Origin: Octopus vulgaris
Lineage: Eukaryota
Assembly: GCA_951406725.2 (NCBI GenBank)
Contig: CATOCA020000001.1
Span: 2,480,001 to 2,544,000, forward strand
Reading direction: 5' to 3'
DNA: 64,000 bases
Shown here: positions 13,300 to 18,169 of the stretch, piece by piece
How positions within the stretch are numbered: position 1 is the stretch's first letter
Layout: every line of letters begins with the position of its first letter
Program-made: the position numbers and the translations under genes
Notes under the pieces: generated by a model
What the model saw: only the letters and a program-made list of their open reading frames with translations
Database searches by the model: none
Told to the model about the DNA's origin: nothing

Positions 13300-13478
13300 T
13301 CTATCCCTGTTGCCCGCTTTGGGATCTTTCTTTCTTCTCTCTTCCTTCTTTATGTTTCCGACGAAGAGCTCCGCTCGAAACGTCATACCCTCCTGCTTCC
13401 ATTTCCTGAGCGCCTATTAATAATAATACTGTAATTGTTCCATTGTTGTTGTTTTTTTGTTTTCCCGTTTGGATTAAA
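13300..13478 (+). mobile_element. PLE-type 3' terminus with a minimal hammerhead variant
   Basis: CCGACGA-aGAGC-tcc-GCTC-GAAA-CG-TC at ~13368-13384, then TTCCTGAGCG and a T-rich tail into (TA)n. Same layout as 59225-59388. Confidence 0.55.
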
Positions 13479-13726
13479 ATATATATATATATATATATAT
13501 AAATTAATCAATTTAGGGTAGCAAAAAAAATTCAATAGAAATTTATCGCTACCAGCGGCCTAGTGGAAAAGAGAAAATAGTCAATGACTAAATATATAAA
13601 TATAACAATTTAGGAGTGACCCTAACAGGTCATTCGTCCACCAGAAAGAGCAGCCATAACTCACACCGCCAAGTAGTAGTAATTCAGAAATTAGGTGAAA
13701 ATTTAAAAACATTTACCCTAATTCAT

Positions 13727-13826
13727 CTTTTAGACGTTGCAACGTTTCTGTGTCATTAATGATTAAATTAGCTTAATTAAACTAAATTAAGCTAATCTAC
13801 CATAGGTTACACTTCATCAGTAAAAA
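13727..13826 (-). ncRNA. Type I hammerhead ribozyme, left-arm copy 1 (further copies at 14201-14300, 14674-14773, 15147-15246)
   Basis: Reverse complement of TTTTTA-CTGATGA-aGTGT...ACACa-GAAA-CGTTGCAACG-TC-TAAAAG. Confidence 0.85.
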
Positions 13827-15646
13827 ACCTGGGAGAGACAAATATACACGAGGCGTCTGTATCGATGCCTACGGAATATCTGTCTTAAAATTTTCAAGAC
13901 TGGCGTATTCGCGCCAAACTTATCAGCAGTAAATATAAACTGCCGATTCAATCTCAGAATTATTCAGAAAATTATCAATTAATCAATTTAGGGTAGCAAA
14001 AAAATTCAATAGAAATTTATCGCTACCAGCGGCCTAGTGGAAAAGAGAAAATAGTCAATGACTAAATATATAAATATAACAATTTAGGAGTGACCCTAAC
14101 AGGTCATTCGTCCACCAGAAAGAGCAGCCATAACTCACACCGCCAAGTAGTAGTAATTCAGAAATTAGGTGAAAATTTAAAAACATTTACCCTAATTCAT
14201 CTTTTAGACGTTGCAACGTTTCTGTGTCATTAATGATTAAATTAGCTTAATTAAACTAAATTAAGCTAATCTACCATAGGTTACACTTCATCAGTAAAAA
14301 ACCTGGGAGAGACAAATATACACGAGGCGTCTGTATCGATGCCTACGGAATATCTGTCTTAAAATTTTCAAGACTGGCGTATTCGCGCCAAACTTATCAG
14401 CAGTAAATATAAACTGCCGATTCAATCTCAGAATTATTCAGAAAATTATCAATTAATCAATTTAGGGTAGCAAAAAAATTCAATAGAAATTTATCGCTAC
14501 CAGCGGCCTAGTGGAAAGAGAAAATAGTCAATGACTAAATATATAAATATAACAATTTAGGAGTGACCCTAACAGGTCATTCGTCCACCAGAAAGAGCAG
14601 CCATAACTCACACCGCCAAGTAGTAGTAATTCAGAAATTAGGTGAAAATTTAAAAACATTTACCCTAATTCATCTTTTAGACGTTGCAACGTTTCTGTGT
14701 CATTAATGATTAAATTAGCTTAATTAAACTAAATTAAGCTAATCTACCATAGGTTACACTTCATCAGTAAAAAACCTGGGAGAGACAAATATACACGAGG
14801 CGTCTGTATCGATGCCTACGGAATATCTGTCTTAAAATTTTCAAGACTGGCGTATTCGCGCCAAACTTATCAGCAGTAAATATAAACTGCCGATTCAATC
14901 TCAGAATTATTCAGAAAATTATCAATTAATCAATTTAGGGTGGCAAAAAATTCAATAGAAATTTATCGCTACCAGCGGCCTAGTGGAAAAGAGAAAATAG
15001 TCAATGACTAAATATATAAATATAACAATTTAGGAGTGACCCTAACAGGTCATTCGTCCACCAGAAAGAGCAGCCATAACTCACACCGCCAAGTAGTAGT
15101 AATTCAGAAATTAGGTGAAAATTTAAAAACATTTACCCTAATTCATCTTTTAGACGTTGCAACGTTTCTGTGTCATTAATGATTAAATTAGCTTAATTAA
15201 ACTAAATTAAGCTAATCTACCATAGGTTACACTTCATCAGTAAAAAACCTGGGAGAGACAAATATACACGAGGCGTCTGTATCGATGCCTACGGAATATC
15301 TGTCTTAAAATTTTCAAGACTGGCGTATTCGCGCCAAACTTATCAGCAGTAAATATAAACTGCCGATTCAATCTCAGAATTATTCAGAAAATTATCAATT
15401 AATCAATTTAGGGTAGCAAAAAAATTCAATAGAAATTTATCGCTACCAGCGGCCTAGTGGAAAAGAGAAAATAGTCAATGACTAAATATATAAATTGATA
15501 ATTTTCTGAATAATTCTGAGATTGAATCGGCAGTTTATATTTACTGCTGATAAGTTTGGCGCGAATACGCCAGTCTTGAAAATTTTAAGACAGATATTCC
15601 GTAGGCATCGATACAGACGCCTCGTGTATATTTGTCTCTCCCAGGT

Positions 15647-15746
15647 TTTTTACTGATGAAGTGTAACCTATGGTAGATTAGCTTAATTTAGTTTAATTAA
15701 GCTAATTTAATCATTAATGACACAGAAACGTTGCAACGTCTAAAAG
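15647..15746 (+). ncRNA. Type I hammerhead ribozyme, right-arm copy 1 (CTGATGA at 15653, 16127, 16601, 17075, 17548)
   Basis: Stem I TTTTA/TAAAA, core CTGATGA, long stem II GTGT...ACAC enclosing a perfect 12-bp hairpin ATTAGCTTAATT/AATTAAGCTAAT, GAAA, palindromic stem III CGTTGCAACG, GTC cleavage triplet (after C15740). Confidence 0.88.
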
Positions 15747-18169
15747 ATGAATTAGGGTAAATGTTTTTAAATTTTCACCTAATTTCTGAATTACTACTAC
15801 TTGGCGGTGTGAGTTATGGCTGCTCTTTCTGGTGGACGAATGACATGTTAGGGTCACTCCTAAATTGTTATATTTATATATTTAGTCATTGACTATTTTC
15901 TCTTTTCCACTAGGCCGCTGGTAGCGATAAATTTCTATTGAATTTTTTTGCTACCCTAAATTGATTAATTGATAATTTTCTGAATAATTCTGAGATTGAA
16001 TCGGCAGTTTATATTTACTGCTGATAAGTTTGGCGCGAATACGCCAGTCTTGAAAATTTTAAGACAGATATTCCGTAGGCATCGATACAGACGCCTCGTG
16101 TATATTTGTCTCTCCCAGGTTTTTTACTGATGAAGTGTAACCTATGGTAGATTAGCTTAATTTAGTTTAATTAAGCTAATTTAATCATTAATGACACAGA
16201 AACGTTGCAACGTCTAAAAGATGAATTAGGGTAAATGTTTTTAAATTTTCACCTAATTTCTGAATTACTACTACTTGGCGGTGTGAGTTATGACTGCTCT
16301 TTCTGGTGGACGAATGACCTGTTAGGGTCACTCCTAAATTGTTATATTTATATATTTAGTCATTGACTATTTTCTCTTTTCCACTAGGCCGCTGGTAGCG
16401 ATAAATTTCTATTGAATTTTTTTGCTACCCTAAATTGATTAATTGATAATTTTCTGAATAATTCTGAGATTGAATCGGCAGTTTATATTTACTGCTGATA
16501 AGTTTGGCGCGAATACGCCAGTCTTGAAAATTTTAAGACAGATATTCCGTAGGCATCGATACAGACGCCTCGTGTATATTTGTCTCTCCCAGGTTTTTTA
16601 CTGATGAAGTGTAACCTATGGTAGATTAGCTTAATTTAGTTTAATTAAGCTAATTTAATCATTAATGACACAGAAACGTTGCAACGTCTAAAAGATGAAT
16701 TAGGGTAAATGTTTTTAAATTTTCACCTAATTTCTGAATTACTACTACTTGGCGGTGTGAGTTATGGCTGCTCTTTCTGGTGGACGAATGACCTGTTAGG
16801 GTCACTCCTAAATTGTTATATTTATATATTTAGTCATTGACTATTTTCTCTTTTCCACTAGGCCGCTGGTAGCGATAAATTTCTATTGAATTTTTTTGCT
16901 ACCCTAAATTGATTAATTGATAATTTTCTGAATAATTCTGAGATTGAATCGGCAGTTTATATTTACTGCTGATAAGTTTGGCGCGAATACGCCAGTCTTG
17001 AAAATTTTAAGACAGATATTCCGTAGGCATCGATACAGACGCCTCGTGTATATTTGTCTCTCCCAGGTTTTTTACTGATGAAGTGTAACCTATGGTAGAT
17101 TAGCTTAATTTAGTTTAATTAAGCTAATTTAATCATTAATGACACAGAAACGTTGCAACGTCTAAAAGATGAATTAGGGTAAATGTTTTTAAATTTTCAC
17201 CTAATTTCTGAATTACTCCTACTTGGCGGTGTGAGTTATGGCTGCTCTTTCTGGTGGACGAATGACCTGTTAGGGTCACTCCTAAATTGTTATATTTATA
17301 TATTTAGTCATTGACTATTTTCTCTTTTCCACTAGGCCGCTGGTAGCGATAAATTTCTATTAATTTTTTTGCTACCCTAAATTGATTAATTGATAATTTT
17401 CTGAATAATTCTGAGATTGAATCGGCAGTTTATATTTACTGCTGATAAGTTTGGCGCGAATACGCCAGTCTTGAAAATTTTAAGACAGATATTCCGTAGG
17501 CATCGATACAGACGCCTCGTGTATATTTGTCTCTCCCAGGTTTTTTACTGATGAAGTGTAACCTATGGTAGATTAGCTTAATTTAGTTTAATTAAGCTAA
17601 TTTAATCATTAATGACACAGAAACGTTGCAACGTCTAAAAGATGAATTAGGGTAAATGTTTTTAAATTTTCACCTAATTTCTGAATTACTACTACTTGGC
17701 GGTGTGAGTTATGGCTGCTCTTTCTGGTGGACGAATGACCTGTTAGGGTCACTCCTAAATTGTTATATATATATATATATATATATGTGTGTATATATAT
17801 ATATATATTTATATATATATAGGCGTATATGGCGCAGATTTAGCTCGCCCCTCTCCCTTTTTTGTGAAATACGTAGAAAAGATTGGAGATAATGATTCTG
17901 AAAAAAGTCATTGTTTGTAAAATTCCATGAATTCAAAAGAAAAATAAATAAATCTCACCTCCTGATTCTACGGTTTTCAACCAGGCTATCTACATGCTAG
18001 AAATAACAGCCATACCTCGAGCGAACTTTTTGGGGCACATAATTACAGTCTCTGTATCGAATGCTTTGCATTTTACCCCATGGGGCTACCGAGTCACTTC
18101 GTTACCATCATCTATCTCTTGTAGTTCCTACTATTCGTTTTCACTTTCTCTCTCCTTCCGCTTTGTGAA

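Follow-up and report, generated by a model that had tools for sequence, protein, structure and literature searches.

A two-armed non-LTR retrozyme array in the genome of Octopus vulgaris, probably copied from both DNA ends by a Penelope-like enzyme

Nine hammerhead-bearing units in two head-to-head arms

The window considered here is a stretch of 64,000 nucleotides (nt) of Octopus vulgaris DNA (assembly GCA_951406725.2, contig CATOCA020000001.1, positions 2,480,001 to 2,544,000 of the forward strand). At 13502-17768, it contains nine units of 473-474 nt, measured from cut site to cut site, with a GC content of 34%. As read from its sequence, this array is a single insertion of a repeat that is young and dispersed, encodes no protein and carries a predicted type I hammerhead ribozyme. 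A preliminary description of the window had counted nine hammerhead-bearing units at unit spacing (five on the plus and four on the minus strand), and motifs and cut sites were located at all nine. Its picture of a single tandem array requires correction, because the units form two head-to-head arms embedded in a (TA)n tract. The left arm (13502-15495, minus strand) comprises 4.21 units and the right arm (15493-17768, plus strand) 4.80 units. Their 5' ends meet centrally with an overlap of 3 nt (15493-15495), and their 3' ends point outward against the left (13480-13501) and right (17769-17821) parts of the target tract. TRF reports 4.2 copies for 13498-15495 and 4.8 copies for 15482-17776, with 99% matches in both arrays.

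When monomer position 1 is set at the first base 3' of the cut site, the left arm runs in the sense direction from position 132 at the junction to position 230 (site B) at the left TA tract, while the right arm starts from 227 at the junction and reaches the right TA tract at position 133 (site A). The segment between site A (133) and site B (about 229-230), the 'tail', has a length of about 96 nt and is found in one unit at 16348-16444 (plus strand). The units of the window differ from each other by four single substitutions and four one-base insertions or deletions. The longest stop-free frame in the unit spans 55 amino acids (aa), which confirms the reported lack of an open reading frame (ORF); the unit therefore does not have the reverse transcriptase (RT) and GIY-YIG domains of an autonomous Penelope-like element (PLE). 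A check of the window for PLE sequence gave no match at the array itself. The monomer had been described as large for its class, but published units span 51-972 bp (Li et al. 2026, 10.64898/2026.07.22.740005), so that 474 nt is not exceptional.

The hammerhead motif

The plus-strand motifs are located at 15646-15747 (CTGATGA from 15653, predicted cut after 15740), 16120-16221 (CTGATGA from 16127, cut after 16214), 16594-16695 (from 16601, cut after 16688), 17068-17169 (from 17075, cut after 17162) and 17541-17642 (from 17548, cut after 17635). Those on the minus strand are found at 13726-13827 (CTGATGA from 13820, predicted cut after 13733), 14200-14301 (from 14294, cut after 14207), 14673-14774 (from 14767, cut after 14680) and 15146-15247 (from 15240, cut after 15153). 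The motif consists of stem I, CUGAUGA, stem II lengthened by a hairpin of about 60 extra nt, GAAA, stem III and GUC, and the predicted cut falls between GTC and TAAAA in each of the nine copies. Stem III has 4 bp and is palindromic; for the motif at 16120-16221, the palindrome measures 12 nt. The notion of a complete type I hammerhead in each unit holds for the stems and the core motif, but not for a fully canonical core, as positions 10.1-11.1 carry A·A where hammerheads usually have G10.1-C11.1. The covariance-model check suggested in the preliminary description did not support the motif: an Rfam search of the array returned no hammerhead at the gathering score, nor at E values up to 10, a miss that is probably explained by the long stem II.

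In a constrained fold of the 102-nt motif, the hammerhead reaches -23.1 kcal/mol, compared with -24.1 kcal/mol for the best fold. The predicted fold of the 474-nt monomer, exemplified by the cut-to-cut unit 16215-16688 (plus strand) as the predicted circle, lies well below those of shuffled sequences (z -5.9). In monomer and circle folds, 16228-16243 pairs with 16670-16682, which sets post-cut bases against GAAAC and stem III. Such a pairing might block the ribozyme and bring the monomer ends together, and one of its positions appears to covary across subfamilies; both indications are weak.

A dispersed family with compensatory changes

A 26-base core occurs 121 times genome-wide (2.8 Gb, 227 contigs) and its reversed control not at all, so the motif is not a product of chance. 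The 121 cores (allele-specific searches list 81 and 40 places) fall in 46 loci. Two older related subfamilies are present, one about 90% identical and one about 76% identical (102 exact 22-mer matches). All 46 loci of the window's young subfamily were read, together with 40 loci of its relatives; the latter are partial and biased samples, with 20 of 21 loci from the second pattern and 20 third-subfamily loci taken multi-hit first. The dispersed copies expected earlier are thus present, and the near-identity of the nine units, in a 46-locus subfamily alongside two older ones, agrees with a young element.

Across the subfamilies, stem III is altered on both sides while its palindrome is kept in all three, stem I shows U-A exchanged for C-G, stem II reads GTGT/ACAC versus GCGT/ACGC, and the cleavage triplet is GUC or GUA only. 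In a covariation analysis of eight sequences, 89% of the cells pair and double-sided changes are found in stems I and III; the score of 0.224 was reached by 0 of 500 shuffles and slid controls rose to 0.12, to be read with the reservation that the shuffles ignore relatedness and that stem II of three rows is out of register. The compensatory changes indicate that this is a family of predicted hammerheads. They also show the core to be conserved in related repeats, and together with the tandem non-coding hammerhead units and the 46 dispersed loci they are consistent with the class of retrozymes lacking long terminal repeats (non-LTR retrozymes), to which the element had been assigned.

At positions 10.1-11.1, the subfamily furthest from the window's has G-C, the intermediate one has A·C or A·A, and the window's own has A·A. 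An A·A mismatch at this place slows hammerhead cleavage, and the predicted cleavage activity of the window's subfamily is probably weakened. A rate for the A·A pair is not given in the available portions of PMC544870 or PMC2837043. The axolotl retrozyme Amex2 has U·U at 10.1-11.1 and cuts weakly (Cervera and de la Peña 2020, PMC7229834). Because published retrozymes tolerate a mismatch at this position, A·A lowers the expected activity of the element, not its membership of the class. Tandem neighbours are more frequent in the A·A subfamily than in the G-C subfamily (44 versus 7 per first 100 matches listed, P ~1e-9), a contrast that is confounded by subfamily age.

Near-identical sequence is found in sequencing runs of eight studies under three organism labels. 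None of the sequence sets in which the unit occurs is listed as RNA; four contig sets guessed to be RNA cover parts of the unit, and some of these contigs run into (TA)n. A search of contig sets with the left-flank sequence yielded nothing locus-specific.

Many unrelated type I hammerhead motifs are present in the flanks of the loci that were read (L066, L109, L110, L113, L117, L148, L153, L158, L162, L164, L169 and L171), several of them as inverted pairs, which suggests that the genome contains many more such families. The array of the window itself sits in its TA tract immediately after a very abundant repeat (about 13180-13480). Near the end of this repeat, at 13350-13400 (plus strand), lies a minimal hammerhead-like core with CCGACGA, a 4-bp stem II, GAAA, CG and TC, and a poor stem I.

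Fixed 3' ends, scattered 5' ends and the (TA)n target

The insertion target is (TA)n in all three subfamilies sampled. The 3' ends of the arms lie at monomer position ~133 (site A) or ~229 (site B) and are followed by TA repeats, and the 5' ends are scattered. A scripted analysis of 85 loci found 24 with A/B ends, 20 with B/A ends, and none with A/A or B/B; one end was called at 39 loci and none at two. L201, which completes the 46 loci of the window's subfamily, adds another B/A case, and one A is paired with one B in 45/45 loci with both ends called. The end motifs were written after the ends had been seen, and at five ends where both motifs matched, B was taken, in agreement with the monomer coordinates. 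Site A shows TATAT-like homology to the target and site B little. In the window's subfamily, the 9-mer CCTAAATTG is found directly before both start sites (16333-16341 and 16430-16438), and its counterparts in the oldest subfamily are less alike.

In two-armed loci, the left arm is always on the minus and the right arm always on the plus strand, and the opposite polarity is found in none. This is the polarity expected if both DNA 3' ends were extended with complementary DNA (cDNA). According to the k-mer map, an inverted, 5'-truncated second copy is present at 28 of 45 loci, and five more have tiny second arms. The arms are joined with an overlap of 0-7 nt in 15 of the 28 loci and with 1-24 nt of filler in the other 13. 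The 5' ends accumulate at the edge of a hairpin (positions 179-188, with 9 of 76 ends, P ~0.01) and are not enriched near the cut site, where 4 of 76 are found and 3.2 are expected.

In the window, each arm starts at a monomer position 1-2 nt from that at which the opposite arm ends. The idea that exactly nine units resulted from twin priming on a single circle was considered and rejected, since such a match occurs at 1 of 28 loci with 2.9 expected; the coincidence in the window is probably due to chance. An arrangement that places site A opposite site B within a helix was likewise discarded, being seen in a single fold only and absent from a consensus of 18 sequences, in which 0 of 19 pairs showed double changes. 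Rearranged insertions with three segments, or with filler made of short unit pieces, occur at L032:4394-4947 and at L074, L085, L086 and L092, and are probably template switches during repair.

One haplotype per insertion

Within loci, 40 of 44,132 letters depart from the local majority, and 30 loci compared with each other show a mean distance of 5.9 per unit and 23 haplotypes. The two arms of a locus differ by 0.59 per 474 nt (18 loci), versus 6.0 in shuffled pairs, with 2.0 as the lowest value of 2000 shuffles. At five of the 18 loci, alleles private within the subfamily are present in every unit of both arms. The window's allele 425G (in one unit at 16639, plus strand) is private genome-wide: all nine matches lie in the array, one in each unit of the two arms. 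Two further candidates for window-private alleles, 148A and 225T, were rejected, as they are private within the subfamily only and older subfamilies carry both.

Among 76 arm segments, 46 exceed one unit, 18 exceed two, eight exceed three and six exceed four, up to a maximum of 6.8 units. At sites with at least four copies, 24 variants are singletons, one is shared within one arm (L030) and one across arms (L046). This excess of singletons indicates that the units were mostly formed at the same time. In 116 of 117 passages through the cut site, no change lies within 12 nt, and imprecise jumping from one cut monomer to another is thereby excluded. L046, L048 and L031 show two unit types in alternation in both arms. 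The alternating allele at L046 is found nowhere else in the subfamily and reads G,T in one arm and G,T,G,T in the other; the alternation at L048 concerns an error-prone T run and that at L031 a duplication of 8-9 nt. Alternation in both arms would be most simply explained by a dimer template that is read repeatedly. Only one of the seven loci with an arm of more than three units has a longer array of the same haplotype in the assembly. The haplotype purity of the arms is in line with the multi-round copying of one template proposed earlier, and the pattern as a whole indicates that each insertion passed through a template of one or two units and regrew to many units on both sides.

Penelope-like elements of the genome

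The genome holds young PLEs, and in many copies a frame of 781 aa is preserved, with RT and, at its C terminus, a GIY-YIG domain. In three PLE families, the copies terminate in (TA)n at either a short or a long site, the two being separated by about 26-36 nt. Among 11 two-armed PLE copies, eight combine a short with a long end, one has two long ends and two are unclassified; one of the families was found by its long end, so short+short copies are not visible there. The (TA)n target, the two fixed start sites and the inverted second arm of the retrozyme are in agreement with PLE-type copying, as the preliminary description had supposed.

One young PLE family (L139:744-5990 and L136-L152) combines the intact 781-aa frame with an overlapping upstream frame of 479 aa, which has no Pfam match. 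A scan of the pseudo-LTR (pLTR) of this family found no canonical hammerhead. At L075:2538-5471, an arm of the third retrozyme subfamily directly adjoins a two-armed PLE of a different family at the latter's 3' end. This join was rejected as a template switch that would name the helper, because it lies about 10 nt from the short end of the PLE, and a chimera explains it no better than a later insertion accompanied by a small deletion. The window itself contains decayed PLE fragments with RT and GIY-YIG at 50129-51054, which resemble the L153 family most and include a short piece in reverse orientation.

How the arrays may have arisen

The element is probably a non-LTR retrozyme that is copied by a PLE enzyme from both DNA ends, likely round an RNA circle. 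Its transcripts would self-cleave, perhaps as dimers via the palindromic stem III, and the cleaved RNA would be ligated into monomer circles and sometimes into dimer circles. A PLE protein with RT and GIY-YIG domains, probably acting as a dimer, would cut both strands of the (TA)n tract. One DNA end could then prime at site A through the TATAT-like homology to the target, and the other at site B, which lies some 96 nt further downstream. Each RT would circle the template and eventually dissociate from it, in many cases at hairpins, and repair would join the two 5'-truncated cDNA ends. A PLE protein assayed in vitro cuts both strands and extends them, and its two internal start sites delimit a 'tail' (Frangieh et al. 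2024, PMC11167929). New alleles that are fixed in every unit of both arms require a one-unit bottleneck followed by regrowth, and a ligated circle would provide this directly. Circles have been shown for retrozymes of coral, mussel and axolotl (Cervera and de la Peña 2020, PMC7229834).

More tentatively, the arrays could be records of two-ended rolling-circle reverse transcription, in which a PLE dimer uses two fixed starts on one hammerhead-made circle, and the loss of G10.1-C11.1 prolongs the life of the circle and lengthens the arrays. The longest arrays are found in the A·A subfamily, as would be expected if its circles lasted longer, and also if its uncut multimers were longer.

Several observations weigh against PLE-driven copying of a circle. 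Cleavage and circle formation of the window's element are predicted from DNA, and the reservations on the covariation score apply here as well. The window's subfamily may cut poorly because it has lost the G10.1-C11.1 pair that the oldest subfamily keeps. In 136-nt and circular folds, the best structure pairs stem III elsewhere, and in the longer context stem III is predicted to pair with bases about 20 nt past the cut. Hammerhead cleavage is not needed in the PLE assay, where uncut RNA is the main template (Frangieh et al. 2024, PMC11167929). Among 50 GIY-YIG loci and 25 third-family loci, the monomer matches no PLE beyond AT-rich bits (150 of 6136 candidates were scored for homology), and a PLE family in which the scan found no hammerhead still makes partial tandems. 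L181:2097-4672 is a two-armed PLE with the long end on both sides, the sole exception seen to the pairing of short and long ends. The variant at L030, present in units 5 and 7 of one arm only, fits a later duplication in DNA, and parent arrays that are absent from the assembly may lie on chromosomes outside it.

The main rival keeps the two-ended PLE insertion and replaces the circle by an uncut linear multimer, which stays intact owing to the weak A·A hammerhead and is copied by both RTs as the same molecule. Arrays would grow when an RT re-enters a homologous unit of that molecule in cis, and with such re-entry the DNA pattern would be the same as that left by a circle. This explanation is considered unlikely, even though it draws on the preference for uncut RNA in vitro (Frangieh et al. 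2024, PMC11167929) and on the age-confounded excess of tandem neighbours in the A·A subfamily. A possible longer parent, L058, exists for L051, and 7 of 32 listed 5' ends of the oldest subfamily lie, by eye, at positions 372-380, a possible transcription start. However, the copying of a parent can only shorten arrays, while 5 of 18 loci have new alleles in all units, and six of the seven long-armed loci have no parent in the assembly. Partial cleavage would give a pile-up of 5' ends at the cut site, which is not seen, and the re-entry of the RT in cis is an added assumption.

It is rather improbable that the PLE inserts short arms of one or two units, which are lengthened later in DNA through slippage or unequal exchange. 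Li et al. (2026, 10.64898/2026.07.22.740005) have proposed unequal crossover as a route of local amplification, and the repeated variant in one arm of L030 is in accordance with it. Gradual growth, however, predicts many variants shared within an arm, and 1 of 26 is of this kind; moreover, both arms would have had to grow separately at the window, L030, L048 and L051 while less than 0.1% diverged.

Spread of a satellite or fold-back element as DNA alone, or an artefact of assembly or amplification, with an incidental resemblance to a hammerhead, is very hard to credit and already largely refuted: the unit is AT-rich, hairpin-rich and without an Rfam match, but the 3' ends are fixed and polarised in (TA)n with scattered 5' ends, compensatory changes preserve the hammerhead stems, near-identical sequence recurs in the eight studies under three organism labels, and arms that end at different sites are not fold-backs.

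Comparison with known systems

Like the metazoan non-LTR retrozymes, the octopus element consists of dispersed, non-coding tandem units of a few hundred bases with less than 50% GC and one type I hammerhead each, lacks LTR features and shares its genome with PLEs. It differs from them in its two arms, its fixed starts, the single haplotype per insertion and the A·A core; cleavage and circles have been shown there, whereas here they are predicted. The mobilisation of retrozymes by PLEs was proposed by Cervera and de la Peña (2020, PMC7229834) and by Li, Clavereau and Pollet (2026, 10.64898/2026.07.22.740005), the former also proposing tandem cDNA from a circle and the latter arguing the link from co-occurrence and pLTR similarity. 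The copying of circular RNA into cDNA of more than unit length, by a helper to which the sequences give no clue, is a hypothesis in retrozyme reviews. The available main texts of PMC7229834 and 10.64898/2026.07.22.740005 make no mention of inverted arms, a tail or cephalopods.

PLEs with an endonuclease (EN+ PLEs) also use AT-rich or (TA)n targets and form partial tandems, and they have an inverted, 5'-truncated second copy and a tail that is often present at one end only and bounded by two RT starts (Frangieh et al. 2024, PMC11167929; Craig et al. 2021, PMC8557442). In contrast to these elements, the retrozyme has no ORF, its tail measures about 96 nt instead of the 30-40 nt in PLEs, and both of its arms can span several whole units, up to 6.8. 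The tandem and inverted insertions and the tail were called unexplained in the PLE literature (Craig et al. 2021, PMC8557442). The dimeric hammerheads of PLEs (Cervera and de la Peña 2014, PMC4209133) share the palindromic stem III and loop 3, which are kept by double changes in the octopus family, and their extra base after A9 offers one way to read the core found here. They differ in that stem III of the octopus motif has 4 bp and could fold in the monomer, and in that the G10.1-C11.1 pair, highly conserved there, is missing in the window's subfamily.

In the twin priming of L1, an inverted 5' segment arises from a second priming event and is joined through microhomology, and the 5' end of one arm meets the priming site of the other. 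In the octopus family such a meeting is seen at 1 of 28 loci, and both start sites are fixed.

Searches of the open-licence literature found no description of the 474-nt family, of its architecture or of genomic evidence for multi-round copying. The element class is already known, and the repeated copying of an RNA circle is the step that has only been proposed so far. The young, completely sampled subfamily supplies counts for this step, namely a strict pairing of start sites and one template per insertion, as well as several rounds of copying on both sides and hints of dimer templates. The proposed conversion of a circle into a tandem thereby becomes countable and testable, and a small substrate with exact start sites is named for an assay of the kind established with one PLE protein. 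If two-ended rolling-circle copying is indeed what the arrays record, retrozymes and the tandem and inverted insertions of PLEs would have one mechanism, and the 474-nt unit with its mapped start sites would be the substrate for an in vitro test.

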